Shown here: positions 12-55,902 of the stretch, in pieces
How positions within the stretch are numbered: position 1 is the first letter of the stretch
Layout of the letters: the number at the start of each line of letters is the position of its first letter
DNA from: Escherichia phage PP01
Sequence record: NC_054930.1
Length of the DNA stretch: 64,000 bases
Reading direction: 5' to 3' (one strand)
The notes under the pieces: generated by a model
Database searches by the model: none
What the model was told of the DNA's origin: nothing
What the model saw: the letters and a program-made list of their open reading frames with translations, nothing else
Translations under genes and position numbers: made by a program

Positions 12-2189
12 TTAGGCCGCAAGGGCCTTCATAGTTTTAGCGATTTGGGAAACTTCATCATCACTTAAAGAGTTGCGATAACCGATGAAGTCAGAAACAA
101 TACGGAATTTCTTGGTAAACTCAGCAACCATTTTATCACTGTTTTTTGAAGCATTATTTGATAATACATCAAAAAGATTAGTTACTGTCCAGATGTCATG
201 ACCGATGGTATCTTTTCCACCATTAAAATATACACCCTGTAATGAACTAACCATATTAGCGAGTCGTGTATATTCTTCAGAAACTTCATCTACACTGAAG
301 TACTTCATCATAAAATCTAATTCAGGATACTTGATAATTTTATCAATATATCGTTTAGCTGAACTTGAATAACCTACATACTTATCATAATCTACATCAT
401 CAAAAGCATCTACATATAAATCACGCAAAGCTTCAAAAATACATTGGCACTGACCGAGTTCTTTTACCTTTTTCTGTAAAAGCGGACGAATAACATAAAA
501 TTCATTAATGCCAATAAGATTAGCCATACGAATCAAAATATTCATAGATGGATGACAAAGAGATGTAGTACCATCCATAGAGAAAATATCAGAACGATGC
601 ATATACGCTACATAACCAGTAATTTCATCTGCTTCTGATGTGAGCGTAAATAATTCCTCTTTTTCCCACCGCCCGTCTTTAATTTCAAACTTAAATGCTG
701 TAGCAGCTTTAGGACAAGGAGCTTTACTTTTAACTACCTTTGGAATATAACTTTTTACTAAAGCTTCAATTTCTGACAAATAATGAATGTTAACTTCATC
801 ACTTTCAAACATCGCCATAATATCAGGAAGTAAATCAATCTGTGATTCTACTTCCGGATTAATAAACAGAAGACGCTCATTGTGATGAATATTTAAAGTG
901 TTATTAAATTCTTTATCATCTAACGCATGTGCTAATCCACGGACAATATTAACACGATTTTTAATATTATCAATAACGATATTAATTTTTGTTGTATTAA
1001 TACCAAACAGACGATAACTTGATGCAACGGCTGAAGTTTCATGACTTTGCTTAATGCGTTTCAGTCGAGGGTCAAGATTTACTTCATACACAACTCCTGC
1101 ATTGCATAACTTACTATCAGGTTCAAACATGCTTTGCATCTTCTTATATGACAGATTTTTAGTCGTAAATTTGACTGAATTACTAATCATATAATCTCGA
1201 GCAGAATACCCCATCTTCATCAATTCACGGTATGTGTGACGAGGAGATGTAGATTCTTTAAATCGTTTTACATCTTCATTAAATGCTTTCTCACTGAGTT
1301 CTTTAACTCGTTCAATAATATTTTTACGAGTACGATCATCCAGTGAAAGAGCCTCACGAGATGGAGCAATATCAAGTGAACCCATTGGAAACTTAATGTA
1401 ATTCACTTCATTGCGAATGCTTAGCCAGTTACGGTCTCTAATAACACCATCGATAGGATAAACAATACCGCCATAGATAGCATATAATCCACCACGATCA
1501 GGCCAGTATCTTTCTGGATTTACGCCATAATAATCATCAAAATCCGGAAAATAATCAATTTCGCGGTCAAGACCATTAATGATAGCCAAATCTTTGAACG
1601 GTCGCATGATATAAGAAACTTCATAAGCAAAGTTTCTAAAGTCTTTTTCTTCAACTGGAACTACGATTTCAATACCAGTTTTATCATCTGGACCCATTTC
1701 TTTTACGAATGTAGGTTTAATCTGTGGACCATCACCATCCATATAAGCTACATAACCACGAATTTCACCTTTATGGTATGAAGTAATACTAAACGTATCA
1801 GTATAACTAAATGGAGATTTAGAACCTAAACCAAATCCACCAATGAAATCGTTAGATTCAGCCTTAGATGAACTGAAGTATGAATTATACAGACCAGGAG
1901 AATTATCATCACCCTGAATATCAAAATCACTCATACCCGGACCAAAATCTCGACAAACAAATCGTGGATCTAAACGTCCAGGAACTTGTATGATAAATTT
2001 TTCAGGATTTCCATTGAGTGCATGGGCATCAATCATGTTAGTAATCAATTCACGGACTACTGCGCGAATTTTGTTTGTATACAAATCAGATGACAGAATT
2101 TTAAATACTTTAGGAGATGCTGTGATGCTAAATGCTTTTGATTTAGAACCATTACCAAGAATTGTTTCTTTTTCAGTGGTGATAATCAT
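12..2189 (-). CDS. rIIA: rIIA protein (lysis inhibition / rapid-lysis locus)
   Basis: 725-aa ORF; length, N-terminus and position at the window start match T4 rIIA. Confidence 0.93.
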
Positions 2190-2199
2190 AATTTCCTCA

Positions 2200-2403
2200 T
2201 TAATTCATATTGCGTTTAATAACTTCAGCAACTTCTAGTAGTTCATCTTTAGTTGCGGTGTCGGATTGAATTTTATCTCTAATATCTTTAAAGCGGTTTT
2301 TAAATTCTTCGGCTTCTCCCATATCGAAAAAGCGTTGAATGATTCTATATTCTCGATGAACTGCTTTATCAAAAAGTTCTAAATTTACTTTATATGATTT
2401 CAT
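2200..2403 (-). CDS. rIIA.1: rIIA.1-like small protein
   Basis: 67-aa ORF between rIIA and the topoisomerase gene; GAGGA Shine-Dalgarno upstream; early promoter at 2429-2458. Confidence 0.65.
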
Positions 2404-2428: not shown

Positions 2429-2458
2429 ATTATACCACATCCTTGTGGTAAAGTAAAC
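2429..2458 (-). promoter_or_regulatory. T4-type early promoter (minus strand)
   Basis: Minus-strand GTTTAC, 18 bp, TATAAT preceded by GTGG; upstream of rIIA.1. Confidence 0.65.
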
Positions 2459-4278
2459 TACTGGCTCATCCATTCTTTGCGAAGGTCAGCATTATCTCCC
2501 ATGAGCATTTCAAAAAGCTCTTTCCAGTTCTCAGGAAGTTTAACAACATCATATACTGGATTTTGAATCATCTCACGATATTCAGATTTTTCCAAAGAGC
2601 CAAGTCCCTTAATATAACGGATGCTATGTTTAGGTAGAGCATCTTTGGCACTCTCATATTCAGCGACTGTATAAAACCATTCTTGTTTTTTACCGACTTG
2701 AGCGATGATTACAGGAGTTTTGACAAAGCGAATTCGTCCTTGCTCAAACAGTTCTGGCCAATTACTAAAAAATCCAAGAAGAGAAGGATAAATGCTTCCT
2801 AAACCATCATGGTCAGCATCGGTCATAATAGCAATATTATGATAATTCAAGTTTTCAGCTTTTTCACCAAGAACTAATCCAGTGATTGCGCAAATATCAA
2901 ATAGTTCTTTGTTTTTAAGCATATCAGCATATGACATACCCCAACTGTTGAGAACTTTACCGCGCAATGGATAACCACCGTGAAGTTCTTTATCACGAAC
3001 ATCAATAAGATATCCGATAGCAGAATCACCCTCAGTCAAGAAAAGAGTAGTGTCAGCATCTTTACCGCAAAGATTCGCTTTGATATGTTTATGAACCTTA
3101 GCTTTAGAAGCCTTTTTAGCTGCTTTAGTTTCTGCTGCTTTTTCTGCTGCCAATTTACGGGCCAAGGCAGCTTCAATAATTGGCATCAGAATTGCTTCAT
3201 TATTTAAAATAGCGCGTGAAATCTTTTTAGCATCAAGTTGAATATGACTACGAATTTCGCCAAATGGAGAAGTCAAACGCTCTTTAGTTTGAGAATCAAA
3301 TCGCATGTTTTTCATATCACGGACAAACATAACGATAGTCAAACATTCTTTGACACGTGCTTTAGTTACATCAATTTTGAACTTACGTTTGATTTGTGGA
3401 ATAAGGTCTTCACAAATATCATCCATAACACAGTCAATGTGATGGCCACCATTCTTAGTGTGAATGTTATTCACGTAAGTTAATTGACGAAATCCATCCG
3501 GTGAACGACCAACCGCAATAGAACAATTTTCTTGTTCTTGAACAATAGCATGTTCATCATATTGGCGTGCATATTTCTTAAAATTACCCTGAACCTTTTT
3601 ACCGTTAAAGGTAAATTGAATATCAGGATAAACTACTGCAAGTGTCTGGAGACGATCCAGTGTAATGTCAAGATAAACTTGAGATAGCTCATTAGTTTCA
3701 AATGACATAAAATCAGGAATGAAAGTAACGCGAGTTCCTTTCCATTTTCCAGGAATAGTTTCCCATGATTTATTTTCCATGCCATTTGAACAACGAACCA
3801 CAATATTATTTTGACCGTCGCCAGTTTCACCGACAAACATCACAGAAAAAATGTTAGTTAAACTAGAACCAACACCGTTCATACCGCCAGTGACGCGTTC
3901 TTTATCATCACCAAAGTTGCCGCCTGCTTTTGGAATAGTCCAGGCGGCAACAGGACCAGGAATTTCTTCACCAGTAGGTGTTTTAACCATCGCTTGTGGA
4001 ATACCGCGACCGTTATCTTCAACTGTTACTTGATTGTTTTTAATAGTAACATTAATTTTATTCGCGAATTTAAACTTAGTACGAATACCTTCATCTACTG
4101 AGTTATCGATAATTTCATCAATAAGCTTAACAAGACCAGGTACATACTGAACACTTTCCCATTTACCAAACAGAAAGCGCTCATGCATTTCATTAGCAGA
4201 AGAACCAATGTACATGCCGCTACGCTTTTTGATATGTTCAATATCGCTCAGAATTTTAATTTCATTCTTAATCATCAC
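2458..4278 (-). CDS. 39: DNA topoisomerase II large subunit (GyrB-like ATPase + Toprim), uninterrupted
   Basis: 606-aa continuous ORF; GHKL ATPase motifs (DNGRGIP), Toprim LTEGDSA; corresponds to T4 gp39 plus gp60 as one gene. Confidence 0.9.
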   Translation of the reverse strand: MMIKNEIKILSDIEHIKKRSGMYIGSSANEMHERFLFGKWESVQYVPGLVKLIDEIIDNSVDEGIRTKFKFANKINVTIKNNQVTVEDNGRGIPQAMVKTPTGEEIPGPVAAWTIPKAGGNFGDDKERVTGGMNGVGSSLTNIFSVMFVGETGDGQNNIVVRCSNGMENKSWETIPGKWKGTRVTFIPDFMSFETNELSQVYLDITLDRLQTLAVVYPDIQFTFNGKKVQGNFKKYARQYDEHAIVQEQENCSIAVGRSPDGFRQLTYVNNIHTKNGGHHIDCVMDDICEDLIPQIKRKFKIDVTKARVKECLTIVMFVRDMKNMRFDSQTKERLTSPFGEIRSHIQLDAKKISRAILNNEAILMPIIEAALARKLAAEKAAETKAAKKASKAKVHKHIKANLCGKDADTTLFLTEGDSAIGYLIDVRDKELHGGYPLRGKVLNSWGMSYADMLKNKELFDICAITGLVLGEKAENLNYHNIAIMTDADHDGLGSIYPSLLGFFSNWPELFEQGRIRFVKTPVIIAQVGKKQEWFYTVAEYESAKDALPKHSIRYIKGLGSLEKSEYREMIQNPVYDVVKLPENWKELFEMLMGDNADLRKEWMSQ

Positions 4279-4327
4279 TTATCCTCGTTTGGTTTCGGGA
4301 ATATTATACTCCGGTAATCATAAAGCT

Positions 4328-4345
4328 AAAGGCCCGAAGGCCTTT
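4328..4345. terminator. palindromic GC hairpin (AAAGGCC-CGAA-GGCCTTT)
   Basis: Perfect stem with CGAA loop between the lipoprotein gene and gene 39; the T-run is better on the plus strand. Confidence 0.4.
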
Positions 4346-4617
4346 TATTTAAAACGGATAGTCGAATCCTTGAAGAATAGACCAGAACATACTGTTCCTT
4401 CTACTTTCTGCCCGGTAGGTCCAATAGCACGAAATCCAGTATGCTGGAAATCATTTTCAGAGCAACCGAACCAGTTGTATCCAGTGATTTCAATATTAGT
4501 AAAACCGCTTGAAGACAAAATTTTGGTTGCATTATCAGCATCAGTACATCCTACTAAAGATACTGCTAATACTAATGCTGCGATAGAACGATTAACATAT
4601 TTCATAATTTCACTCAA
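4345..4617 (-). CDS. putative lipoprotein
   Basis: 90 aa; N-terminal signal peptide with lipobox LVGC. Confidence 0.5.
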   Translation of the reverse strand: MSEIMKYVNRSIAALVLAVSLVGCTDADNATKILSSSGFTNIEITGYNWFGCSENDFQHTGFRAIGPTGQKVEGTVCSGLFFKDSTIRFK

Positions 4618-4981
4618 ATTTAATGGCTTGAAGAAGACTAATAATTCTCAAGCGACTTCTTTCATCTTTAACTGTAAAAGAAAGAGGGTCGCCAGATTTC
4701 ATAGTGATAGTGCATTCAAAATCAAAATCTTCAGGAACTTCTTCGAAGAAGTCAAATTCTTCATCATAAATTAGAACATTACTCTGAAAACTGTGAAGAA
4801 TTTTTCCATCATTTCCAGATGCTGTACTAATCATTGTAACATTATGGCCTTTCATATCTTCAACGATAAATTCGCTTGTAGATATTACGGCATTAATAGA
4901 ACCATTCCTATAAATAGAAGAAAGCAGATATTTCTTTTCTTCACCTTCGCGAACACGATATTTCTTACCGATTTTAAACAT
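4610..4981 (-). CDS. hypothetical protein
   Basis: 123-aa ORF in the co-oriented early gene chain. Confidence 0.45.
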   Translation of the reverse strand: MFKIGKKYRVREGEEKKYLLSSIYRNGSINAVISTSEFIVEDMKGHNVTMISTASGNDGKILHSFQSNVLIYDEEFDFFEEVPEDFDFECTITMKSGDPLSFTVKDERSRLRIISLLQAIKFE

Positions 4982-4983
4982 AA

Positions 4984-5160
4984 TTACCCTTTAAGTAAGT
5001 CGTAAAAACCACCATTCACATGCTTAGGAGCAGAAGGCCGACGAGTAGACAAACGATGACATTTAGGGCAAACATCATTTTCTCGTTCAGAAATCTTTTT
5101 AATTTTTTCATATTCATGCCCGCAATCTTCGGATTGGCATTTATAATCATACATTGGCAT
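4984..5160 (-). CDS. small zinc-ribbon protein
   Basis: 58-codon ORF found by hand (below ORF-track cutoff); two CxxC pairs (CQSEDC ... CPKC); fills gap between flanking genes. Confidence 0.4.
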   Translation of the reverse strand: MPMYDYKCQSEDCGHEYEKIKKISERENDVCPKCHRLSTRRPSAPKHVNGGFYDLLKG

Positions 5161-5162
5161 AA

Positions 5163-5582
5163 TTATTCCTTAAAGTGTGCTTTCAACATCTGATACAAGG
5201 ACCATGCCTGTTCATTATTTTCAATAGTAACTTTCATGACAGGAAATTCTGTGAAATCTTCTATTTGTTCTTGCTCTTCCTGCTCTTGCTCTTCAGCTGC
5301 CTGATATGGATTTTCCACTTCATCAAAGAACTCAGCTTCGTTAGTAGAAAGCCAGATAAAGTTTTCATCAAGGATATCACCATGTTTTGCATATCCAATT
5401 GTGCCAGTAAATGACATAATTTTAGTAGGACGACCAAGATGGTCAGCATCTAAAATTTTAAAAGGATGCATACCTAAACGGCGTGCATAGATTCCGTTAT
5501 CAGTATGGTCTTTAATAAAAGCTTCTTGAGCCTGTTTATTTTTAAATTGATACCATTTATTAACTTCAAATCTAATAGCCAT
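5163..5582 (-). CDS. hypothetical protein with acidic [10 protein letters not shown] tract
   Basis: 139-aa ORF; strongly acidic stretch near C-terminus. Confidence 0.5.
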
Positions 5583-5797
5583 TAATAAATTTCCTTCCAG
5601 TAAGTTGTGCCATCTTCAGTAATTTCACGAAATACACCGTAAATTGGCTGTTTATCACCAACCTTTTCATACACATAAACCGAAGTCAAGTGAGTAAACT
5701 TAACAGTATGTTCCTTTTGAACCACTACCAAATCTGGATCGAATAATACATCTTCAAATTCGTCATTAGTGCATTTCTGAACAGTTTTACGTTTCAT
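5582..5797 (-). CDS. hypothetical protein (size and position compatible with T4 cef)
   Basis: 71-aa ORF; start overlaps upstream stop. Confidence 0.45.
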
Positions 5798-15640: not shown

Positions 15641-15850
15641 TTAAATTACATGACTATTTATAATAAATTCTTGCGGAACGTTAAAATACCCAATTTTAGT
15701 TAATATAACAACATCACCGTTAATAATTACCGGAGAATAATCGGCTGGAGCATTAAACTTCCAATGAGCTCTAATATTATATCCATCAGAACCAAATGCT
15801 CGACTAGCCGGTCTCCCGGCTTTTTGCCATGCATAAAAATCAAATTTCAT
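15641..15850 (-). CDS. small hypothetical protein
   Basis: 69-aa ORF; occupies the locus where T4 has segF. Confidence 0.4.
   Translation of the reverse strand: MKFDFYAWQKAGRPASRAFGSDGYNIRAHWKFNAPADYSPVIINGDVVILTKIGYFNVPQEFIINSHVI
15655..15662 (-). promoter_or_regulatory. late promoter upstream of soc
   Basis: Exact minus-strand TATAAATA about 31 nt upstream of the soc ATG. Confidence 0.6.
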
Positions 15851-16047
15851 TTTGAATGCTCTATAATTAATTTTAAGGCTTCTTCATGCACCTTACCTAA
15901 TTGTATATGTCCAGTTTTAATTGTGTAAGCTTTGTGGAGCTGATTAGATAAGAGCTCGTATGTGAGCTCCTTGTCATAATTTTTAAATAGCTGGTCAATA
16001 CGTTTCTTGTGGGCTTTCTTAAGCTGGCGTTTATTTAAACGAGCCAT
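15847..16047 (-). CDS. small basic hypothetical protein
   Basis: 66-aa ORF overlapping neighbours by 1-4 nt. Confidence 0.4.
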   Translation of the reverse strand: MARLNKRQLKKAHKKRIDQLFKNYDKELTYELLSNQLHKAYTIKTGHIQLGKVHEEALKLIIEHSK

Positions 16048-16565: not shown

Positions 16566-16636
16566 TATTTTTCCTTTCAATTCATGAGTTAGTAGATTAA
16601 TTATACAATAAATATATAAAGCAATAAGGAGGATAT

Positions 16637-16837
16637 ATGGTACAAAAATTAATGGCACTTGTTAATGCCATAAAAGGTAATAAAAAACGTATAGCTTTTA
16701 CTATTTCTGCTATGATAGGAATTTTACTCTGGAATTTTGTTTTATCGCCAATTGCTATTGCTCATGGTGTTAATATTCCAGTAATTACTCTTGATACATT
16801 CGTAGATTTAGCATTTGCTTTGGTTGGGTTAATTTAA
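16637..16837 (+). CDS. small hydrophobic membrane protein (plus strand)
   Basis: 66-aa ORF preceded by AAGGAGG 7 nt from ATG; lies between the divergent 56 and 61 ends; two hydrophobic segments. Confidence 0.5.
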   Translation: MVQKLMALVNAIKGNKKRIAFTISAMIGILLWNFVLSPIAIAHGVNIPVITLDTFVDLAFALVGLI

Positions 16838-17862
16838 ATCTTAGCATATTTAGATAGCCGCATTTTAGCCATCAACCCTTGAGCAATATTATTTTTCATA
16901 TATTCCATAATTTGTTCAGGGGTTGCACCTTCCTTTCTAATCATATCATTAACATCTTTTGATTTCCAGGGAGATTTGTCCCAAAACATAACCCTTTCTC
17001 CTGCATCAACTAATTTAGTCATTCGTTTAATAGTGTCAGGATGACGAGGTTCATTATCTAAAACCCACACACGTCTATCTTTAAATGGAACAATTTCTAG
17101 GTCTAATTGACCACCCGTAATAGCTATACCATTTTCAATAAAAAGCGAATCTATAGGTCCTTCTAGAACATATACATCGCCATCTTTAACCCGTTCAACT
17201 CCATAGATTTTTGTTGCCTCAGGATAAGCTTTGATGGTGATATATTTTTGAGGAGCATCTTTCTTTAACGCACGGCCTTGAAAAGACTCAGCTTTTCCAT
17301 TAGCATTATAAATTGGAATAACAAGACGAGGCTCAGGTATTTCCTTTTTGTATGTTCCTGGTGCTATGCTATTAACTAATTTAGGCCATTCGGTTGTAAA
17401 CCAAAGATATTTCCATTTATCCTTTGGAATACAGCGAGCTTTTACATATTTTATAATTGGATGGTCTTCCGCCAGTTTATCTAATCTAACGCATGACGGA
17501 AGAGATTTAATTATTTTCTTCTCAGGTTGTTTAGGAAGTTCTTTAGGTTTTTCTACTGGACGACTTTTACCTTTTTCTTTTCTTATTTCAAAGATATACT
17601 CACGATATAAATCGGGTTCAAACTCCTTTAAATATATTCCGATTGGTGCATGATAGTTGCAGTTATAACAATGAATATTTCCTTCATTATTATCGCCATA
17701 ATACCATCCACGGGCTTTATTTTGGTCGGTTTTTGAATCTCCACAAACAGGGCATCTAAACCGCAATTTAAAAGTTGAACTATTATTTACTTGTGTGAAT
17801 TTAGGTAAATGAGCCAATGCACGGTATGCAAACTCATTATCAATCCAAGGTATTGATGACAT
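16834..17862 (-). CDS. 61: DNA primase
   Basis: 342 aa as in T4 gp61; zinc ribbon CPVCGDS...CYNC; Toprim region. Confidence 0.9.
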   Translation of the reverse strand: MSSIPWIDNEFAYRALAHLPKFTQVNNSSTFKLRFRCPVCGDSKTDQNKARGWYYGDNNEGNIHCYNCNYHAPIGIYLKEFEPDLYREYIFEIRKEKGKSRPVEKPKELPKQPEKKIIKSLPSCVRLDKLAEDHPIIKYVKARCIPKDKWKYLWFTTEWPKLVNSIAPGTYKKEIPEPRLVIPIYNANGKAESFQGRALKKDAPQKYITIKAYPEATKIYGVERVKDGDVYVLEGPIDSLFIENGIAITGGQLDLEIVPFKDRRVWVLDNEPRHPDTIKRMTKLVDAGERVMFWDKSPWKSKDVNDMIRKEGATPEQIMEYMKNNIAQGLMAKMRLSKYAKI

Positions 17863-22882: not shown

Positions 22883-23731
22883 TTAATCGACTGCTATTGG
22901 ATGAATAGCATTAAACTTATGAAACGCTTCTGATTTTTCTTTGCGCGAAACACACATGCGAAGAACCTTTAATGGCTCGTCTTCTTCACCTAATGATTTT
23001 CGTTTTTCAATATTAGAAGTTTTCCAACGAGCTTGCTCTGGAAACTCTTTATTGATTTGCTCAAGAGCTCTATTATGTTTTGAATTACTACGAATTGAAC
23101 TACATCCGCCTGGAGCTTGTGCTTTTCCAGACACAACCAGATATTTGAACAAAGCCAAATGCGGATAACCCTGATTAATTAAATTGAGAAATGCATACAT
23201 ATCTTCGCATAAATCAATTTTTCCATACCCAATTTGTTCTGTAGTAAGTTTTCCGAGGTCATACCATGTATTCGTGAATCCATATGAATTTTCACGATAA
23301 TTACCCCAAGATGAAGTAATTTTAAAAATAGGTAGACGAGCATGACCGTGATAATACCCGCAATCCATGGCATCTTCAACGTATTGAATCAATTCATAGA
23401 ACTGTTCACGAGTTAATTGATTAATTTTATCTACGCAGCGACGATCATCTTTCTTTCGCATTGAACTCATACGAATAGTAGTATCATCATCAATCATCCA
23501 AATTCGTTGACCTGCATACATATCAGTAATTGCTTTACGAGTTCCAGCAATTCCATTAACATCATCAGGAATAGTTATAATTTTAGCCCTAGACCCGTAA
23601 GCGTCATAATAAGCTTTTTCTTCATGTTCACGTACTACAATATGAGGTTCATAATCAGTCGGAAACATATCAAGGGCAGAAACTGCCCCTACGCGTTGAT
23701 AGCTTGGAATTACGAATTGAATCATTTCCAC
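22883..23731 (-). CDS. glycosyltransferase, GT-A fold (candidate beta-glucosyl-HMC alpha-glucosyltransferase)
   Basis: 282 aa; DxD motif WMIDDDTTI; occupies the beta-gt locus between uvsX and gene 42 but is unlike T4 beta-gt (351 aa). Confidence 0.5.
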   Translation of the reverse strand: MEMIQFVIPSYQRVGAVSALDMFPTDYEPHIVVREHEEKAYYDAYGSRAKIITIPDDVNGIAGTRKAITDMYAGQRIWMIDDDTTIRMSSMRKKDDRRCVDKINQLTREQFYELIQYVEDAMDCGYYHGHARLPIFKITSSWGNYRENSYGFTNTWYDLGKLTTEQIGYGKIDLCEDMYAFLNLINQGYPHLALFKYLVVSGKAQAPGGCSSIRSNSKHNRALEQINKEFPEQARWKTSNIEKRKSLGEEDEPLKVLRMCVSRKEKSEAFHKFNAIHPIAVD

Positions 23732-33489: not shown

Positions 33490-34344
33490 TCACAATGAAG
33501 AAAATTCTTTAACTAAAGCCTGTAATGAAGCCTCTATTGGATATCCATTCTTAACTAACATTTTCCTAAACATTACATGTTTAGGACGATTATATGATAT
33601 CCACAATTCATACAATTTATCTTTATTATCCCAATGATAGCCTTTTCGTCGAGATGCTATATGAGCTTTTCTAATCTCCGGATTTTTCCAACTAGCAGCT
33701 ACTGAATTTGATATAGCTATTTTATATTCAGGTTTTGATAAAGCAGCACGAACAGCCTTTTGGTGTTTAATTTTATTTTCTTCGTTATTAAACCATTCCC
33801 TTGAAGCCATTGAAATTTTTTGTTTTGTTTTAAAATTATTTAATCTTTCTTTATTATCTTTCCTATTTTTTGCTACTGAAAAATATTTTAATGCCCTTTC
33901 TCTAGCAGCATTTCTATTTTGCGGATTTGAATAATACTGTTGAAGCCTTTTTGATATTGTGTCACTTACATCTTGTTTTATAAAACTATATTCAGCAGCT
34001 ATTAAATCAACTTCGGCTAAAGATAAATTTTTATATGTTTTTCCTGACATCATTCTATTTAAAGCATTTAACATTTTTCCATTTTTACCTTTTGCTAATA
34101 AGAAGTGTGCTTTAAAATGATTAAAATGACTTAAATTAACTAAATTCCATGTAGATTTTAAATATTCAGGAAATATTGATTTAGGAAGCACGTGGTGTGC
34201 TTCCGTTTTACCTGGAGTTTTAACAGTTGAATTCACAGAAATAAAATTAATGTAAGACTTGGCGTCTTCTTCACTCAACGCTAATTTTTCAACTAATTCC
34301 TTTATTAAAAATTCATCATTAATGTCAAGTTTAAAATTCTTCAC
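33490..34344 (-). CDS. free-standing HNH homing endonuclease
   Basis: 284 aa; HNH motif EAHHVLPKS...NLVNLSHFNHFKAH; basic repeat-rich C-terminus; GTG start. Confidence 0.7.
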   Translation of the reverse strand: MKNFKLDINDEFLIKELVEKLALSEEDAKSYINFISVNSTVKTPGKTEAHHVLPKSIFPEYLKSTWNLVNLSHFNHFKAHFLLAKGKNGKMLNALNRMMSGKTYKNLSLAEVDLIAAEYSFIKQDVSDTISKRLQQYYSNPQNRNAARERALKYFSVAKNRKDNKERLNNFKTKQKISMASREWFNNEENKIKHQKAVRAALSKPEYKIAISNSVAASWKNPEIRKAHIASRRKGYHWDNKDKLYELWISYNRPKHVMFRKMLVKNGYPIEASLQALVKEFSSL

Positions 34345-35984: not shown

Positions 35985-37186
35985 TATTTTGTAATAATGT
36001 CAAACTGTTCTTTAAAGCAGAAGCTTGAATCTTGATGCTGATACAAAAATTCATAAGCTTTTTCGCGTTCACGGTCATAAAGAGCTCGGTCAGATGACAG
36101 TTCTTTAATACGCTCAAATGTTGATTCCATGTCATTTTCATCAAACCAAACGATACCGCTATCATGAGAAATTAACGGAGTATTATCAACACGGAATTTT
36201 AAATTTTCGCCAGTAGATTTCCAAAATACCGGAATTGTTCCACACGCACCAAGCTCGAGATGAGTATATTCTAAAGAACGCTGTAGATATTTTTTATCTA
36301 ATTTACTCAGCTGATAACCAAATCCGGATTTACTCATGCGTTCAAGCATTTCGCTATTTACATAACGGTCGAGAATTTGCGTTGGCAAATTAGGAGCAAT
36401 TTTAATTTGGTCTACTTGATGAAGACGATAATACTCGTATGGAATTCCTTTTTCTTTAATAGGAATGAACGCTGGAGAACGTTCCAGACCTTCCATAACA
36501 GTACTTAGTCCTGCAGGTTTAAGATGTTTTTCGTGAAAATCAAACATCTGATAAAAGCCTTTCCATGTAGTAGTACGACCAATCCAACGGTTGATATTCA
36601 TGTTAATTTCAGAAACATCTTTCCAGTAAGTTGATCGAACCTTCGCAATATCCATAGGAGGCTGAAAGTTATATACGGTCGGTGCTTCTTCAATATCATC
36701 AAACAAAGAAACTGTTTCTGGATACCATTCTTTCATTAAAACTTTATTAAAATCACCATTATCAGAATGGCTAAAAATAACATCAGCTCGACGAACAGTT
36801 TCTTCTAATCCCAAATTTCGGCGCAAAGAAAGAGAAGAATGGTCATGTTGATAAACTACAACACGAACCGAAGGTTTAATGTTATCAATAATTTTTTTAT
36901 AGTTATTAATCGTGTCTTCTTCAACTGAAGTAGCAGGAACTGAATTGATAATTAGAATATCACAATCATTTACCAACTTAAGTGTTTTATCGTATTCTTT
37001 TGCCAATAAAACCGGAATTGAAAATGACTTATAATCATGTGCGCAATTACGAGTAAATGATTTATCTTTAGCATAAACCAAAGTTACTTCATGACCATTT
37101 TTAATAAACCAATCACGTTGCTCAAGAGAAAATTTAGTTACACCACAACCTTCAAGACCTCGAGCCATAAAAATGCATACTTTCAT
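35984..37186 (-). CDS. a-gt: alpha-glucosyltransferase
   Basis: 400 aa as in T4 alpha-gt; position after gene 47. Confidence 0.85.
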   Translation of the reverse strand: MKVCIFMARGLEGCGVTKFSLEQRDWFIKNGHEVTLVYAKDKSFTRNCAHDYKSFSIPVLLAKEYDKTLKLVNDCDILIINSVPATSVEEDTINNYKKIIDNIKPSVRVVVYQHDHSSLSLRRNLGLEETVRRADVIFSHSDNGDFNKVLMKEWYPETVSLFDDIEEAPTVYNFQPPMDIAKVRSTYWKDVSEINMNINRWIGRTTTWKGFYQMFDFHEKHLKPAGLSTVMEGLERSPAFIPIKEKGIPYEYYRLHQVDQIKIAPNLPTQILDRYVNSEMLERMSKSGFGYQLSKLDKKYLQRSLEYTHLELGACGTIPVFWKSTGENLKFRVDNTPLISHDSGIVWFDENDMESTFERIKELSSDRALYDREREKAYEFLYQHQDSSFCFKEQFDIITK

Positions 37187-37238
37187 TTAATATCCTCATT
37201 GTTTTGGTTTATTTTACCAAAAATTTATAAAGCAATAT

Positions 37239-37636: not shown

Positions 37637-37919
37637 TCATATCCTCAATCTGCGATCTAGTAGTCTTCCAAAGAATACTAATAAGTTCATCGTTATATGG
37701 CTGTTTTAGAATATCCCGACTTTTCTTGATAGCATATTCGTATTGAGCAAAATTATTGTTTTCAGCTGCAATCTGAGCGTGCTTGTAAAGACGGTTCAGT
37801 TCGCGTTTGTTTTTAGACAATAACTTATTTGCTTTTCTTTCTGCTTCAAGACGGTTCTTTTCTTCAATAGAAGAAATAAGCTTTTCCACTTCATCATTAA
37901 TTTCGGGTTTATCAGTCAT
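37602..37919 (-). CDS. hypothetical coiled-coil protein
   Basis: 105-aa ORF. Confidence 0.45.
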   Translation of the reverse strand: MTDKPEINDEVEKLISSIEEKNRLEAERKANKLLSKNKRELNRLYKHAQIAAENNNFAQYEYAIKKSRDILKQPYNDELISILWKTTRSQIEDMIDAYTRKIQAS

Positions 37920-37920
37920 A

Positions 37921-38139
37921 TTATTTCTCTAATATAAAATAAAAATCATCATCTGTTAAATGATACCGATAGTTTAATTCTACACCATTAGATTTAAAAG
38001 CGGTATCATACGGATTTTCTGGATCAATATCAATGTCAAGAGCTAAAACTTCCCTGAGATACATTTTAAGTAAATAGGGAATAGCTTCAACTTCAGGTAT
38101 TTCTTCCAAGAATCCGGAGAGGTTAATCGTTAGCCTCAT
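37921..38139 (-). CDS. small acidic hypothetical protein
   Basis: 72-aa ORF. Confidence 0.45.
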
Positions 38140-38680
38140 ATAAAAAATCCAAACTAGGAGAATCGTCTACAACACTTTTCTTTTCAGCCCCTGGTGTTCT
38201 ATAGGTTGATTCTTCGTAATGCGTCATTTTATCGTAGATGTCTTGAATAAAAGTTTCATCTACTAACGCAACCATATCGTCGTCACGACTGTCATAGACA
38301 TTGTGAACGAAGTAACTATATTTCTTTGCAACTTCCTTACGTTCTTTTTTAATACGTTGGACGAATGCATTAAAACAAGCTTGAGTTATATATGCATGTG
38401 GGTTTTTATATTTCGTTTCATCAAAATTATGAAGCCCCTTAATAGAAGCTTCTATACCATCTGCAATCATTTCTTGTTTCCAAGACTGGGTGTATCCTGA
38501 AAAGTTGAAACGTTTAGATAAGCCTTCTGCAATAAGCATAATGGCTAATCCGATGGTATCATTCTGACGAACTACTTTATTTGGGTCTTTATTATTTGCT
38601 AATTCTGTTTTCCAATCAATAATAGCTTGTAAAAGCTCTTTATTGTTTACGTAATTATATTTAGGCTTAGTTTCTGACAT
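38123..38680 (-). CDS. 55: late-transcription sigma factor
   Basis: ORF track 38123-38686; Met at 38680 gives 185 aa as in T4 gp55 ([17 protein letters not shown]...). Confidence 0.88.
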
Positions 38681-41528: not shown

Positions 41529-41999
41529 TTAATCATGTTTCCACACCCCATCGGTATTTGACCAAAGTCGCTGATTATCTGATCCTCGCCACAGCTTTTT
41601 GGTCGGAAGATTTTTCTCATACTTCCCATCAATAATAACATCAACATATTTAAGCATTTCTAGTTGTTTAATATCTTCAAACTTATATCCTGTCCACAAC
41701 CAAATGCTTTTATTTGGATAAAGATTTTTTACTGTTTGAACAATGCAATGAACAACATCTCGGTTATCAGGATAGAGAGGGTCTCCTCCAGTTATAGTTA
41801 ATCCTTCTATATAATCATTATTCAAACATTCAATTAATTGTTCCAGCGTTTCACCAGTGAATGGAATGCCATTTCTAGCATTCCATGTTGATTTATTATA
41901 ACACCCTTCACATTTATGCAAACAACCTGTAACGAAAAGAACGACCCTGCAACCAGGGCCATTCACAAAGCAGCACGGGTATATTCTGTCATAATTCAT
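41529..41999 (-). CDS. nrdG: anaerobic ribonucleotide reductase activating protein (radical SAM)
   Basis: CxxxCxxC radical SAM cluster motif (CLHKCEGC); start at Met 41999 (about 156 aa). Confidence 0.85.
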   Translation of the reverse strand: MNYDRIYPCCFVNGPGCRVVLFVTGCLHKCEGCYNKSTWNARNGIPFTGETLEQLIECLNNDYIEGLTITGGDPLYPDNRDVVHCIVQTVKNLYPNKSIWLWTGYKFEDIKQLEMLKYVDVIIDGKYEKNLPTKKLWRGSDNQRLWSNTDGVWKHD

Positions 42000-42826
42000 A
42001 ATAATATCCAATTTTTCCAAGCTTCATCAGTAGAATTACAGCGTTTTAGTATAAGATGTCTAGAAACTTTTATGGCATTTGAGCACTTTTTAATTGAATC
42101 ATATTTAATACCGTCAACTGAAACGGTTTTGCTAGTTGGAGAAATTTTTCCATACATTGGATTTTTTGAACCAACTTGAAGTCCTTTTAAAGCTTTTGAA
42201 AGCTTTTGTCTAGATTCCAATGACATGGGAGAATTCTTTTTACCTTCAATAATTCGCTTGCGATGAAGTTCGCGTTCTTCTTCACTCAAAGAATTGTAAT
42301 ATTTTTTAACACCGTTTGATATAGATAATTTATCTTTCTCAGACCGCTCTCCAGCTAATTTACTTCTAACATCTTTTCGCTTCATAGCTATGCTTACGGC
42401 TTTATTTAAATTTGCTTGATGCTCTGGCGTACGTTTATATTTCTTTAAAGCACGTGAAATAGCTATTTTAGTTTCTTCTGTTCTCTTTTTACCTTTATTT
42501 GCTAAACTATTTTTGCGGCGATGTTCAAGTGTCTGTTCATAGGCAGTTCCACCTTTTCCACCAGGTTTAATATTATATGTATTTTCTTTTAGACAATACT
42601 CTTCGGTTACAAGTTCAGCTTCTTTATCATACATTTGTTTTTCATTATCAAAAACATGTAAAATTTCTTTATTAAAATTTTTTCTACCATATTTTAATAA
42701 AGCGGCACGAATCAATGTTCCTGACCCCATATAACCGTCATTTATGTTATCGGTGCTATGCGCACCGATATATTCCTTTGAATTAATTATATTTGTTATT
42801 TTATAAATTATATAATACCTATGCAT
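41996..42826 (-). CDS. free-standing GIY-YIG homing endonuclease (Seg-like)
   Basis: 276 aa; GIY-YIG motif YIIYKITN...KEYIGAHS; basic C-terminal DNA-binding repeats; inserted between nrdG and nrdD. Confidence 0.7.
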   Translation of the reverse strand: MHRYYIIYKITNIINSKEYIGAHSTDNINDGYMGSGTLIRAALLKYGRKNFNKEILHVFDNEKQMYDKEAELVTEEYCLKENTYNIKPGGKGGTAYEQTLEHRRKNSLANKGKKRTEETKIAISRALKKYKRTPEHQANLNKAVSIAMKRKDVRSKLAGERSEKDKLSISNGVKKYYNSLSEEERELHRKRIIEGKKNSPMSLESRQKLSKALKGLQVGSKNPMYGKISPTSKTVSVDGIKYDSIKKCSNAIKVSRHLILKRCNSTDEAWKNWILL

Positions 42827-44636
42827 GTTTTACTCGTTTTACCATTTCTTTCATTTTACCTAAATTCCATGGAACAACGCTAGGAGTTCCAAGATAACCG
42901 CATGTTCTTCTTATGGTGTTCATCTTTTTAGGATCAGTTTCTCCACAAATAGAACAAACAAATCCGTTTTCAGTAGGAGTCATTTCATGGGTACTTCCAC
43001 ACGTAAAACATTTATCTACCGGCATGTTAACACCAAAATAATCTAAATGTTGTGCAGCATAATCCCATACGGCCTCAAGACCCTTTAAGTTATTTTTCAT
43101 ATCAGGAAGTTCAACATAAGAAATGTGACCGCCTGTCGCAATGAAATGATATGGCGCTTCACGAGAAATCTTTTCAAACGGAGTAATATTTTCTTCTACT
43201 GAAACATGGAAACTGTTAGTGTACCAGCCTTTATCGGTAACATCTTTTACGCTTCCATATTTTTCTGTATCGAGTTTACAGAAGCGATAACAAAGGTTTT
43301 CAGCAGGAGTAGAATACAAGCTAAAAGCAAAACCGGTTCTTTCAGTCCACTGCTTAAGACGAGCATTCATTTTAGTCAAAATTTCCTGTCCAATATCACG
43401 ACCGACAAGAATATTCAATTCGTGAATACCAATGTATCCTAGGGACACTGAACTTCTACCGTTTTTAAATAACTCAATTATGTCGTCATCAGGTTTAAGA
43501 CGAACCCCGAATGCACCTTCTTGGTAAAGAATAGGAGCAACAGTCGCTTTAACTCCTTTTAAGGAACTAATTCTACACATCAAAGCTTCAAAACACAAAT
43601 CCATACGTTCATTGAATAATTCAACAAATTTCTGTTCATTGAACTGTGTTCCAATATAAGAATCTAACGCGATGCGAGGAAGATTCAGTGTTACAACACC
43701 AAGATTATTACGTCCATCAAGAATTTCATTACCAGTCGAATCTTTCCATACGCTCAAGAAACTACGGCAACCCATTGGAGAAACAGGAACAGATGAACCA
43801 GTGATAGCTTTATTGTTCTTAGCTGAAATAATATCAGGATACATCCTTTTGCTTGCACACTCTAGAGCAAGCTGCTTAATATCATAGTTCGGATCGTCTT
43901 TATAAAGATTAACACCTTCTTCAACGAACATAACAAGTTTAGGGAAAATAGGAGTTATCCCATCACGACCAAGACCTTTAATACGATTTTTCAGAATTGC
44001 TTTCTGAATCATTCGTTCAGTCCAGTCAGTTCCCGTACCAAATGTAATTGTTACAAAAGGCGTTTGTCCGTTTGAACTAAAGAGAGTATTTACTTCATAT
44101 TCATAAGCTTGGAACGCATCGTATACGTCTTTTTCTGTTTTAGATTGGGCATAATTCAACGCGTCAGCGATTTGCCATTTTTCTGCATCCTCAATATGTT
44201 TTGCATAGGTGCGTTTAACATAAGGAGAAAGGACTTTATCTACATTCGCAAAAGTCGTTCCACCGTATTGATGGGAAGCAACCTGTGCAGTAATTTGTGC
44301 CATAATTGCAGTAGCAACACCGATTGATTTAGGAGTTTCAATCTGTGCATTACCGAGCTTAAATCCGTTCTCAAGCATTCCTTTTAAATCTACTAAACAG
44401 CAATTAGTAAATGGAAGAGCAGGGGAATAATCAATATCATGGAAATGAATAATTCCGCTTTCATGCGCTTTCATAATAAAAGACGGGACCATATTTTTGG
44501 CAATGTGTTTAGACACAATACCAGCCATAAGGTCCCGTTGAGTTGGAAAAACACGAGAATCTTTATTAGCATTCTCGTTTAAAAGGTCTTTATTAGTTTT
44601 ATGAATCAATCCTTCAATTTCTTTTTCAATTGTCAT
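42819..44636 (-). CDS. nrdD: anaerobic ribonucleoside-triphosphate reductase (glycyl radical enzyme), intron-less
   Basis: 605 aa continuous ORF; C-terminal glycyl radical motif RTCGYLG; Zn ribbon CFTCGS...CSICG. Confidence 0.92.
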   Translation of the reverse strand: MTIEKEIEGLIHKTNKDLLNENANKDSRVFPTQRDLMAGIVSKHIAKNMVPSFIMKAHESGIIHFHDIDYSPALPFTNCCLVDLKGMLENGFKLGNAQIETPKSIGVATAIMAQITAQVASHQYGGTTFANVDKVLSPYVKRTYAKHIEDAEKWQIADALNYAQSKTEKDVYDAFQAYEYEVNTLFSSNGQTPFVTITFGTGTDWTERMIQKAILKNRIKGLGRDGITPIFPKLVMFVEEGVNLYKDDPNYDIKQLALECASKRMYPDIISAKNNKAITGSSVPVSPMGCRSFLSVWKDSTGNEILDGRNNLGVVTLNLPRIALDSYIGTQFNEQKFVELFNERMDLCFEALMCRISSLKGVKATVAPILYQEGAFGVRLKPDDDIIELFKNGRSSVSLGYIGIHELNILVGRDIGQEILTKMNARLKQWTERTGFAFSLYSTPAENLCYRFCKLDTEKYGSVKDVTDKGWYTNSFHVSVEENITPFEKISREAPYHFIATGGHISYVELPDMKNNLKGLEAVWDYAAQHLDYFGVNMPVDKCFTCGSTHEMTPTENGFVCSICGETDPKKMNTIRRTCGYLGTPSVVPWNLGKMKEMVKRVKHA

Positions 44637-45106
44637 TTTAAACTCTTTCTAAGCTGCTTCTTAAATGAAGCTATTAATTGTGTTTTAGTGTCAGATTCAT
44701 TATATTCAAATCCTCTTTGAAGCATCTCAGCCATCATTTCCTCTTTTCCTAAACGAGAAAATTCCTTTGATTTATCTCCAACGAAGTTAGGGTGAATATT
44801 ATTTTGGGTGTAATCGGATTTTAAATAAGTAAGTAAATTTTCTAGCCATTCAAGATAATCAACACCTTGTCCCTTTAAGCCAGAACGATTGAATTTATGC
44901 TTCATTTGACCTTCTGCAGCATTACAGAGATTACATAGCAACCCACGTACCTTTCCTGCTTTTGGTCCATTTAATTCATGGTCATGGTCAAGGTGATTAG
45001 CTTGAACATCAGGATTTAGTTCTCGTTGGCAAATTAAGCATTTACCGTTTTGTGCATCATAAAATTTCTGTTTTTCTTCTTTGTATAATTTGCCAGTCAA
45101 TAACAT
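44633..45106 (-). CDS. 49: endonuclease VII (Holliday junction resolvase)
   Basis: 157 aa as in T4 gp49; Cys-rich Zn site and HNH-like core. Confidence 0.88.
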   Translation of the reverse strand: MLLTGKLYKEEKQKFYDAQNGKCLICQRELNPDVQANHLDHDHELNGPKAGKVRGLLCNLCNAAEGQMKHKFNRSGLKGQGVDYLEWLENLLTYLKSDYTQNNIHPNFVGDKSKEFSRLGKEEMMAEMLQRGFEYNESDTKTQLIASFKKQLRKSLK

Positions 45107-45145
45107 AATAAAACCCTTACCTTGAATAGATAAGGGTATTTATTA
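45107..45145 (-). promoter_or_regulatory. hairpin abutting the gene 49 translation start
   Basis: CCCTTA...TAAGGG stem immediately 5' of the gene 49 ATG; T4 gene 49 is known to be controlled by RBS sequestration on the early transcript. Confidence 0.45.
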
Positions 45146-45148
45146 TTT

Positions 45149-45325
45149 TCAAGTATTGTAAAACATTCGATGCAATCGCTTATATTGTCGAATCATCTTT
45201 TTAGTAGGACGAGAATAAGTTCCTATACAAGTGGTCATATTAGGGTCAGTAGGACTTCCTTTAATAAAAAGTTTCCAAACCTTACCGCCATTTAACTTTT
45301 CAGTATAAATTAATTCGGTTTTCAT
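45149..45325 (-). CDS. small hypothetical protein
   Basis: 58-codon ORF found by hand; TAATG overlap with upstream stop; followed by hairpin. Confidence 0.35.
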   Translation of the reverse strand: MKTELIYTEKLNGGKVWKLFIKGSPTDPNMTTCIGTYSRPTKKMIRQYKRLHRMFYNT

Positions 45326-45789
45326 TAAAACGCTCGGTCAGAAAAAGAAATTTGAGTTTCAAGCCATTCAATATATTCTGCCGCAGCTTGCATCAAATTT
45401 CCTTCATAACCATCGTTATTTTCTTGTGCAGCTAATTTAGCTAATGCATATGAAATGCGTTCACCTTGAAAAGCGGCTTTAGGTTTATGAATAACTTGAT
45501 CAACTCGTTCTACGACCTCTTCAATTTCGCCATTTTCTGTGGATTCAGTATTCCACAAGCACCAATACGTAATTGGCTTATCATAGATGTTAATAATCTT
45601 TCCATCAGAAAGTTCAATTTCAATAATTCCAGTATCAGGTTCTATATCATCTTCGCATTCTTTTGCAAGTTCACGAACTTTAAAGACAGTACCTGCACTA
45701 AGTTCCGGCCAGTAATTACACAGCCCTTTATCAGCACGATTAATTCTAAACCACTTATCTACTGTAATCATGTCCCATCTCCATATCAA
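45325..45789 (-). CDS. hypothetical protein (pin-region)
   Basis: 154-aa ORF (probable start at Met 45771). Confidence 0.45.
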   Translation of the reverse strand: MIWRWDMITVDKWFRINRADKGLCNYWPELSAGTVFKVRELAKECEDDIEPDTGIIEIELSDGKIINIYDKPITYWCLWNTESTENGEIEEVVERVDQVIHKPKAAFQGERISYALAKLAAQENNDGYEGNLMQAAAEYIEWLETQISFSDRAF

Positions 45790-45894
45790 TTAAGTCATTT
45801 ATCGTTGGTTCATTATATACTGTTTCTTCATCAGTGTAAACCGGTTCTTCCGGCTCTGGCTCTACAGTTTCCCATCTAGCCGCCCACCAGGGTT

Positions 45895-53906: not shown

Positions 53907-54920
53907 TCATTTATAATAACTTCGGTGGTTTTCAAGATAAACCCTCTCAAGGAAGTCATCCCAGAAACTCATGTCTACTTTTTGCTGCATACCGTTCTTA
54001 GAAGCTTCAATGGATGCTGCTTCTACTTGATCGACCACATCTTCCAAAAACTCTTGAACAGTTTTAAATGGATGCTTACCCAACTTCACGTCGAGAATAA
54101 ATGAAGCATCTTGGAGTGGATAAACCAAGTCACCAGTTTTGTAAATTTCCAATAGTTGGAGTCCACCACGACAAGCATGGCTCAAAGCTTTCCAGTCAAT
54201 GCCCTCATTCGCTTCAGCTTTACGAGCGCGTTCACCGTATTCGGCATCAAGTTTATTCAATGACTGCTTGAGCTCTGTAATTGATAACGTTGTTTGGTAC
54301 TTACGTCCAAGAACAGTATAGAACGTTTGCGGGCCTGTTTTCTCATGATTATGGAACACCCATTCACAGAACTCGTTTTCAGGGAGTCTGTGTTTGATAT
54401 CTTCTACTTTAGTACGACGAAGTCTATCAGGGATTCCTTCTTGATAATCAACCCACTGGTCAGGGATTTGATTAACTACTTTCAATACATCACGTAATGC
54501 GGCCAAACGAGAACCCTTGACACCGTATTTAGAAGCTTGCTTGCGGACATATCCTAAATAGGATTTCATGTTAGTTGTATAAAACCGTGAACGATTGTCT
54601 TGGATAAATTTCCATACATCAGGCAAATCAGATTTAACCACTAGTTCAGGCGGAGTGTGAAGCATATCCAATGCTACAGTTTCACCATCTGCTGCTAATT
54701 TAAAGAAATACTTAAGACTGTATAGTTCATGGTCAATATCATCTTTAGTGTTTTTAGATGATGTGTTGTTAGTGTTTTTACTCATATGCTCTTTAACATT
54801 TCCGATAAGAATATCGCGAGCACGAGGAACAAAGATTTCTTTAAAATCTACATCAGATTCTGGAGTAGAAGTTCCATAAAGATGACTACCAAAATAGCTT
54901 TTCATTACTGTTTTCATCAT
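53907..54920 (-). CDS. nucleotidyltransferase-fold protein (Pol-beta superfamily)
   Basis: 337 aa; N-terminal GS-x9-DVD motif (GSHLYGTSTPESDVDF) typical of minimal NTases. Confidence 0.55.
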   Translation of the reverse strand: MMKTVMKSYFGSHLYGTSTPESDVDFKEIFVPRARDILIGNVKEHMSKNTNNTSSKNTKDDIDHELYSLKYFFKLAADGETVALDMLHTPPELVVKSDLPDVWKFIQDNRSRFYTTNMKSYLGYVRKQASKYGVKGSRLAALRDVLKVVNQIPDQWVDYQEGIPDRLRRTKVEDIKHRLPENEFCEWVFHNHEKTGPQTFYTVLGRKYQTTLSITELKQSLNKLDAEYGERARKAEANEGIDWKALSHACRGGLQLLEIYKTGDLVYPLQDASFILDVKLGKHPFKTVQEFLEDVVDQVEAASIEASKNGMQQKVDMSFWDDFLERVYLENHRSYYK

Positions 54921-55378
54921 TCAGCCTTATATTCAATAACAGGACATACTTTAGCTTTACGCGCTTTTAAAAATTCGACGATAATAGATTTCTTGGGTTG
55001 AATAGGAGGTAAGCCTTTATACGCCCTATCAATATTTTCTACATGTAAAGCATAATCCTTTTTCCATTTATAATCTTTATATTTTTCATGCAGTTGTGCA
55101 GGAATAACAAATGAACCGATAATAAGTAAAACAACCAAAAGCGCAAGTATAAATGCTGATGGAAGAAGAGTCCATAAACTACCGAAAATAAGCCAACGTT
55201 GTAGGCTTTCTGCACAAATAATTGTTAGCCCTACGAGTATAGTACACCCAAAAATAGAAACGAAAAATGTAGGAATGGCAATAGACCAAAAATATGCGCA
55301 TAGTGTCTTAGGTCGTTGCCATTCATCGTTAAACAATTTGAATAATTTATAGTGCCAAGAGTTTTCATTAATAATCAT
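54917..55378 (-). CDS. membrane protein
   Basis: 153 aa; 3 predicted TM helices. Confidence 0.5.
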   Translation of the reverse strand: MIINENSWHYKLFKLFNDEWQRPKTLCAYFWSIAIPTFFVSIFGCTILVGLTIICAESLQRWLIFGSLWTLLPSAFILALLVVLLIIGSFVIPAQLHEKYKDYKWKKDYALHVENIDRAYKGLPPIQPKKSIIVEFLKARKAKVCPVIEYKAE

Positions 55379-55380
55379 AA

Positions 55381-55902
55381 TTATCCTTTCATTGAAGGCG
55401 TAACGGTTGTTAAATACTTAATCATCGCTTCAGCTTCTGATTTTGATAATGAAATTTCTCCATTGTTTTGACGAATAGAAATAAAATCCGGATGACGGTC
55501 ACCACCAGCTTTTAAAACACACATATAAGTATCAGTTTCATCTTCAATATTTGAAATGATTGAAGCAGTTCCGCATGAATGCGGTTTTTGATAAATCAAT
55601 ACAGCTTTTCTTCCGCCATTTGACTGTTCATAAACTTTTAATACATCAAACAAATCACTTCTTTTATCAATAGCTAAAATGTTATTTTCATCTTCAATGT
55701 TAAATCCTTCGGATACTTCATAAAGTGTTACCCATAAATCACCGATGTCAATAACAGCATTTACTTTTCCACGGCTTTCAAGAGTATGACAAATTTTCTT
55801 GATTTCGTCATAACTCATTTTAATAATATCATCTCCTTGACTAAGAAAGATGTCATTTTTAAATTCAACACGAATTAAACCGCTTTCACTTGAAATAAAC
55901 AT
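55381..55902 (-). CDS. hypothetical protein (paralogue pair A)
   Basis: 173 aa; C-terminus similar to next ORF. Confidence 0.45.
   Translation of the reverse strand: MFISSESGLIRVEFKNDIFLSQGDDIIKMSYDEIKKICHTLESRGKVNAVIDIGDLWVTLYEVSEGFNIEDENNILAIDKRSDLFDVLKVYEQSNGGRKAVLIYQKPHSCGTASIISNIEDETDTYMCVLKAGGDRHPDFISIRQNNGEISLSKSEAEAMIKYLTTVTPSMKG

Follow-up and report, generated by a model that had tools for sequence, protein, structure and literature searches.

The large subunit of the type II DNA topoisomerase is encoded in two different ways among the T-even phages. In T4 the gene is split into genes 39 and 60 with mobA between them, and its annotation reads 39, mobA remnant, 60.1 and 60, with a 50-nt translational bypass at T4 positions 2803-2852. 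A one-piece gene 39 has been known in T2 and T6 for decades. Cleavage by MobA in this system was reportedly the subject of earlier work by Bonocora in 2011. The T6 enzyme has been purified, relaxes DNA, and has had its structure solved by cryo-EM (PMC11461880, Nat Commun 2024). Sequence comparisons among related phages have revealed multiple recent, independent MobA insertions into parental genomes that are otherwise 96-99% identical (Manning & Atkins 2022). The ‘homR’ segment borne by the element is 67-81% identical to the corresponding parental sequence (Manning & Atkins 2022).

We have analyzed the equivalent locus in Escherichia phage PP01, using a window of 64,000 nucleotides from sequence record NC_054930.1. 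A first-pass annotation of this DNA had recounted the split T4 gene and its 50-nt bypass, in agreement with the T4 annotation, and had proposed that PP01 instead carries an uninterrupted gene. We hold with high confidence that the minus-strand interval 2458-4275 of PP01 is an ordinary, intact Tequatrovirus gene 39, which resembles that of T2 and T6 rather than that of T4 and constitutes the uninvaded allele of the MobA insertion site. No feature of the sequence speaks against this assignment.

Extent and control signals of gene 39

The open reading frame list contains a single frame at 2458..4278, which spans 606 codons when counted from a GTG and whose sole stop codon is the terminal one, at 2458-2460. 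The first-pass description of a ‘606-codon uninterrupted ORF’ was therefore right in that there is one frame without an internal stop, and we add that the frame lies on the minus strand, which had been left unstated. Its length, however, needs to be corrected, because translation almost certainly begins at the ATG at 4275, which yields 605 codons rather than 606. The in-frame GTG at 4278-4276 is probably not used as a start. A putative Shine-Dalgarno sequence (GAGGA) is separated by 6 nt from the ATG (4275-4273) but by just 3 nt from the GTG, and the gene 39 annotations of T4, T2 and T6 all begin at the equivalent ATG. On the basis of this spacing and these annotations, we assign the gene to the interval given in Table 1, and its translation would be entirely conventional, proceeding from the ATG at 4275 to the stop codon. 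Terminator-like and promoter-like elements are also listed in the table.

On one side of gene 39 lie rIIA (12..2189) and rIIA.1 (2200..2403), and a 39.1-like ORF (4345..4617) lies on the other. T4 and PP01 share these neighbors, the gene order and coordinates are those with which the T4 reference genome begins, and the coordinates of the two genomes agree up to position 2806. No homing endonuclease gene appears in the ORF list within or adjoining gene 39, and the intergenic gaps that border it measure 54 and 66 nt.

Table 1. Features of the gene 39 locus in the PP01 window
Feature	Position	Strand	Basis
Gene 39 (also annotated ‘gp60plus39’), DNA topoisomerase II large subunit, uninterrupted	2458..4275	-	605 codons + stop; ORF list, protein identity
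TOPRIM_C tail domain	2464..2721	-	Pfam PF16898, E = 4.2e-7
Equivalent of T4 take-off/landing site: GGT (Gly491) followed directly by TTA (Leu492)	2800..2805	-	Sequence and codon comparison
Empty MobA-cassette site, codons 474-491 (ENLNYHNIAIMTDADHDG); replaced in T4 by ~1.1-kb element	2803..2856	-	Alignment breakpoints, codon comparison
Toprim core, E415 (EGDSA) to D486/D488/D490/G491 (DADHDG), continuous	2803..3033	-	Motif positions by inspection
Transducer domain DNA_gyraseB with QTKERL loop	3124..3528	-	Pfam PF00204, E = 1.5e-13
GHKL ATPase domain (HATPase_c; N-box EIIDNSVDE, DNGRGIP, GGMNGVGS)	3829..4137	-	Pfam PF02518, E = 1.9e-9, above cut-off
In-frame GTG adjoining the ATG on its 5' side; ORF-finder start behind the count of 606 codons	4276..4278	-	Sequence
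Putative Shine-Dalgarno GAGGA	4282..4286	-	Inference, read from sequence
TATAAT, promoter-like	4308-4303	-	Read from sequence
GGCCTTCGGGCC hairpin followed by T's, terminator-like, end of preceding gene	4342-4331	-	Read from sequence

The gene product is a complete type IIA large subunit

The 605-amino-acid product matches, with 100% identity, proteins annotated as the topoisomerase large subunit in phages Ozark, Sf23, PYps15T, FL23 and EC.W14-2, and gp39 proteins that are at least 99% identical to it occur in 447 phage records. The ATP-binding motifs EIIDNSVDE, DNGRGIP and GGMNGVGS are located at residues 54, 87 and 130, respectively, and the QTKERL loop of the transducer domain is at residue 329. 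Pfam reports no separate Toprim match in PP01 gp39, only TOPRIM_C; nevertheless, the acidic E...DxD metal site of the Toprim fold (E415, D486 and D488) is present on one polypeptide, and these three columns are invariant in an alignment of six phages. The metal site reported for T6 Topo II is made up of the same residues (PMC11461880). Whereas T4 has its Toprim core split between gp39 and gp60, that of PP01 is unsplit.

Homology to known enzymes extends over the full length of the protein. T6 gp39 matches over residues 1-605 (1388 bits), human TOP2A and TOP2B match over residues 10-603 (E about 1e-59), and ParE matches over residues 6-603 (E about 4e-48). PP01 gp39 thus combines the ATPase, QTK transducer, Toprim and full-length homology that characterize type IIA B-type subunits (GyrB/ParE/T-even gp39). 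Likewise, the earlier proposal that the ATPase, Toprim and C-terminal regions reside on one protein is borne out by the HATPase_c, DNA_gyraseB and TOPRIM_C matches together with E415, D486 and D488.

The closest structurally characterized relative is T6 gp39 (PDB 8YLU chain C; YP_010067157), which shares 604 of 605 amino acids with the PP01 protein, the sole difference being Q526H. The T6 structures (PDB 8YLU, 8YO1, 8YO5 and 8YOD) exhibit the same domain order and the same E415/D486/D488 metal site. At the nucleotide level, T6 gene 39 is 1818 nt long, has no indels relative to PP01, and is 96.8% identical, with 58 silent or near-silent nucleotide changes accompanying the one amino acid difference. 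Beyond gene 39 the T6 genome is unlike that of PP01, with about 96% identity across the first 6 kb. T2 gene 39 is also uninterrupted (605 codons, 1818 nt) and free of indels relative to PP01, from which it differs by two amino acids (F70L and T173D) at 95.5% nucleotide identity.

Because PP01 gp39 shares all but one residue with the active T6 protein, we infer that it too is enzymatically active. In the phage type IIA topoisomerase it is predicted to act as the GyrB/ParE-like subunit, contributing the GHKL ATPase, transducer, Toprim and tail domains. Gene 52 falls beyond the 64 kb of the window; with its product, gp52, PP01 gp39 would assemble into an A2B2 enzyme for the relaxation of DNA in replication.

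The site of the T4 insertion is empty in PP01

Alignment with T4 39/mobA/60 and with T2 and T6 gene 39, which had been suggested as a check on the uninterrupted gene, leaves about 1.1 kb that is found in T4 only and requires no indels for T2 or T6. Specifically, PP01 1-2806 aligns with T4 1-2806 (97.7% identity) and PP01 2858-4607 aligns with T4 3911-5661 (96.0% identity), such that the roughly 1.1 kb of T4 corresponds to 51-54 nt of PP01. Within the shared portions of the gene, nucleotide identity to T4 is 96.3% (1366/1418) and 97.1% (335/345). In the protein, T4 gp39 residues 1-473 match PP01 residues 2-474 (98.3%) and T4 gp60 residues 27-160 match PP01 residues 473-606 (95.5%), with PP01 residues numbered here from the GTG of the 606-codon frame. 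The T4 insert comprises a 43-amino-acid C-terminal extension of gp39, the mobA pseudogene with 60.1, a 30-amino-acid N-terminal extension of gp60, a recoded 45-nt homR and the 50-nt coding gap, all of which are absent from PP01.

The 5' junction of the empty site falls after GEKA, between positions 2856 and 2857, and the 3' junction is at Gly491 or a few nucleotides past it. Read codon by codon, PP01 encodes GEKA-ENLNYHNIAIMTDADHDG-LGSIY. T4 gp39 departs from this sequence after GEKA, and T4 gp60 joins it again at NYANVAIMTDADHDG, which is followed by the gap and then by LGSIY. The insertion bounds in the cassette-free ‘parental’ Topo2L genomes, after amino acid 473 and at G491, match those of PP01 (Manning & Atkins 2022). 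These genomes (for example, in the RB14 numbering, D490/G491) are 96-99% identical to their cassette-bearing relatives, and we see no difference of substance between them and PP01, which is one more example of the same state.

The stretch of PP01 equivalent to the 45-nt homR matches the T4 element-borne copy at only 33 of 45 positions (73%), in line with the published 67-81%, but it matches T2 at 44 and T6 at 42 of the 45. As a result, we consider this stretch to be host-type sequence.

No signals for bypass or hidden recoding

At its take-off and landing sites T4 has GGA-UAG, 47 nt and then GGA-UUA, whereas PP01 simply has GGT-TTA and lacks the UAG. The sequence GGATAG is not found anywhere in PP01 gene 39, either in-frame or out-of-frame, and the T4 take-off hairpin has no match within the 64 kb even when up to three mismatches are allowed. 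Moreover, there is no excess of RNA structure at the site: a 100-nt fold gives z = -0.36 relative to shuffled sequences, as compared with z = -2.2 for the T4 counterpart and z = -3.7 for the 41-nt core of the T4 hairpin. These data agree with the first-pass statements that the gene has no hairpin or take-off element and no homing endonuclease gene, and inspection for the GGA-UAG take-off site revealed no frameshift or bypass element.

Other parts of the cassette are equally lacking. Searches of the 64 kb by tblastn with two MobA proteins, those of T4T and of a Salmonella phage, revealed no orthologue of MobA; the sole match, at about 40% identity over about 80 amino acids of the HNH region, is to an unrelated Mob-like gene at 33490-34344. 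Furthermore, the insert-derived extensions of the T4 proteins (gp39 474-516 and gp60 1-26) have no significant blastp match in PP01. In sum, PP01 has no ~1.1-kb insert, no C-terminal or N-terminal extensions (CTE/NTE), and no 50-nt gap with its signals.

In principle, gene 39 might only seem intact, with a cryptic frameshift, bypass, read-through or assembly error masking a split or defective gene. Several observations speak against this reading. First, the frame runs unbroken through 605 codons. Second, the protein is the same, residue for residue, in independently sequenced phages. Third, the T6 protein, which is expressed, active and structurally solved, differs from it by one residue. Fourth, GGATAG, the hairpin and excess RNA structure are all absent. 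We found nothing in favor of a masked split, and the chance that it is correct is so negligible that we regard it as effectively refuted.

Other differences from T4 in the 64-kb window

Mobile-element loci elsewhere in the window also mostly differ from those of T4, including segF, segA, mobB, mobC, the nrdD intron and mobD, and PP01 carries two homing endonuclease genes that are missing from the corresponding positions in T4. All of these arrangements, along with the T2/T6-type glucosyltransferase gene described below, are shared with dozens of phages that have been sequenced.

The Mob-like gene noted above (33490-34344, minus strand) encodes a 284-amino-acid HNH/Mob-like homing endonuclease (phrog_655, E = 8e-45) and separates gene 46 from the 46.1/46.2 homologues, a position that is empty in T4. 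Of the T4 paralogues, MobD is the best match (30% over 243 amino acids), and the resemblance of the PP01 protein to MobA is confined to about 80 amino acids of the HNH region. The insert is present at a coverage of at least 80% in 69 phage records, such as EC121, Aplg8 and CM8. Between nrdG and nrdD, in the place of T4 mobC, is a gene for a 276-amino-acid GIY-YIG endonuclease (41996-42826, minus strand) with NUMOD3, I-TevI DNA-binding and SegE-like domains, which shares 46-50% identity with T4 SegA and SegB in their N-terminal parts. Identical copies are annotated as SegH (69 records), and we take this gene to be the known MobC/SegH replacement. The adjacent nrdD gene (42819-44636, minus strand) is a single ORF of 605 codons that we consider intronless because T4 44815-45849, a 1035-nt segment that harbors the group I intron along with its endonuclease ORF, has no counterpart in PP01.

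At 37177-37202, T4 mobB (T4 37885-38679) is absent, with 24 nt of PP01 corresponding to 861 nt of T4. In the place of T4 mobD (PP01 54917-55902, minus strand) are genes for a 153-amino-acid predicted membrane protein (phrog_944) and for a 173-amino-acid y05I-like protein (PF24449, PF24448), the latter apparently a paralogue of the neighboring mobD.1 homologue. Two small ORFs (15641-16047, minus strand) of 69 amino acids (DUF7422) and 66 amino acids replace T4 segF, which is absent. Nearby, at 16606-16625, T4 16826-17724 containing the dam methyltransferase gene lacks a counterpart at this position (20 nt versus 899 nt), and in the adjoining region of gene 56 the identity to T4 falls to 73.5%.

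A gene at 22883-23731 (minus strand) for a 282-amino-acid beta-glucosyl-HMC-alpha-glucosyltransferase (phrog_842, E = 1e-89; Pfam TAGT) stands in for T4 segA and the beta-glucosyltransferase gene (beta-gt), and its predicted product points to T2/T6-type (gentiobiosyl) DNA glucosylation. Finally, closer to gene 39, a 123-amino-acid ORF (4610-4981, minus strand; phrog_622) with weak goF-like similarity at its N-terminus occupies the interval between the homologues of 39.1 and 39.2. This ORF is not found in T4, relative to which it constitutes a 371-nt insertion, and T6 annotates one at the same place (AP018814 4600-4971).

Distribution and ancestry of the uninterrupted gene

A 2.5-kb query surrounding gene 39 retrieved 521 phage records, 504 of which have one contiguous match covering at least 80% of the query. 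A 261-nt query that spans the empty site aligns without a break in 453 records, three of which match it at 100% identity. The T4 insert occurs in only 43 records (T4 isolates, RB55, RB59, HY01, HY03 and others), and the cassette is absent from about 92% of Tequatrovirus-like records. At the protein level, an unsplit gene is seen in 1835 of 1950 phage records, among them Mosigvirus (RB69), Jiaodavirus, Acinetobacter, Aeromonas and Vibrio phages, Ackermannviridae, and other genera of Straboviridae.

The same condition prevails at the insertion point itself. Five distant homologues, from RB69 and from Klebsiella, Acinetobacter, Aeromonas and Vibrio phages, are collinear across residues 466-495, where PP01 has no extra residues, and bacterial ParE and human Topo II align through the insertion site in a single stretch. 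Because these outgroups carry a one-piece gene that is collinear at the insertion point, the conclusion from sequence comparison that the uninterrupted gene is ancestral and that the split gene was derived by insertion is well supported. This accords with the first-pass view of the locus as an ‘ancestral, pre-insertion state’.

A one-piece gene could also be a derived condition if an ancestor of PP01 had borne the MobA/bypass cassette and then lost it scarlessly, whether the element was precisely excised and the gene re-fused or an uninvaded phage supplied the intact allele through recombination. T-even phages exchange DNA freely by recombination, and the PP01 window is mosaic relative to T4. 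In addition, there are reports of clades in which the gene has been re-fused and the element progressively lost (Manning & Atkins 2022), and ‘hit and run’ loss has been proposed for some Aeromonas phages. However, the re-fused genes described so far retain insert-derived CTE and NTE residues, of which PP01 has none by blastp, and the region contains no extra residues relative to the five outgroups. The 45-nt stretch is also of the host type, as judged by its 44/45 and 42/45 matches to T2 and T6 versus 33/45 to T4. The missing CTE/NTE scar and the host-type stretch argue against an imprecise ‘hit-and-run’ loss only, since recombination with an uninvaded phage would erase the cassette without a trace and would yield an identical present-day state. 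Overall, we judge secondary loss to be very unlikely. If it did occur, it would represent the complete ‘cure’ of a homing element rather than a new kind of biology.

The description of PP01 as a ‘non-T4 T-even’ also holds: its shared segments are about 96-98% identical to T4, it is unlike T4 at many mobile-element loci, and its gene 39 is collinear with those of T2 and T6. As a marker of not being T4, the absence of the cassette is valid yet weak, because lacking the cassette is the rule.

A probable homing site for MobA

With nothing interrupting its target stretch, PP01 gene 39 is probably open to invasion. T2 is an experimentally used recipient for MobA homing, and the 54-nt stretch of T2 that corresponds to the one replaced by the cassette is identical to that of PP01 at 53 of 54 positions. 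The one difference is silent (ACC in PP01, ACT in T2, at gene nucleotide 1455), and the codon that follows the stretch is TTA in PP01 and CTA in T2. MobA reportedly nicks T2 inside these 54 nt (Manning & Atkins 2022, recounting Bonocora et al. 2011). Nicking is not blocked by the homR polymorphisms alone, whereas the 50-nt insert does block it (Manning & Atkins 2022 on Bonocora et al.). Given the near identity to the T2 stretch, PP01 gene 39 is, by analogy, probably a live, unprotected homing site that MobA can cleave. In a mixed infection with a MobA-bearing phage, PP01 gene 39 could probably be nicked and converted to the split form.

Significance

An uninterrupted gene 39 is the usual state among T4-like phages and is already documented (Manning & Atkins 2022; Nat Commun 2024, PMC11461880), and so the finding matters little beyond correct annotation. 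Its practical value is that PP01 can be recorded as a T2/T6-like Tequatrovirus rather than T4, with the start codon of gene 39 fixed, a product of 605 amino acids, and a putative unprotected MobA homing site. Although this site does not represent a new kind of biology, its intact state would make PP01 a convenient natural recipient in which MobA homing could be measured.
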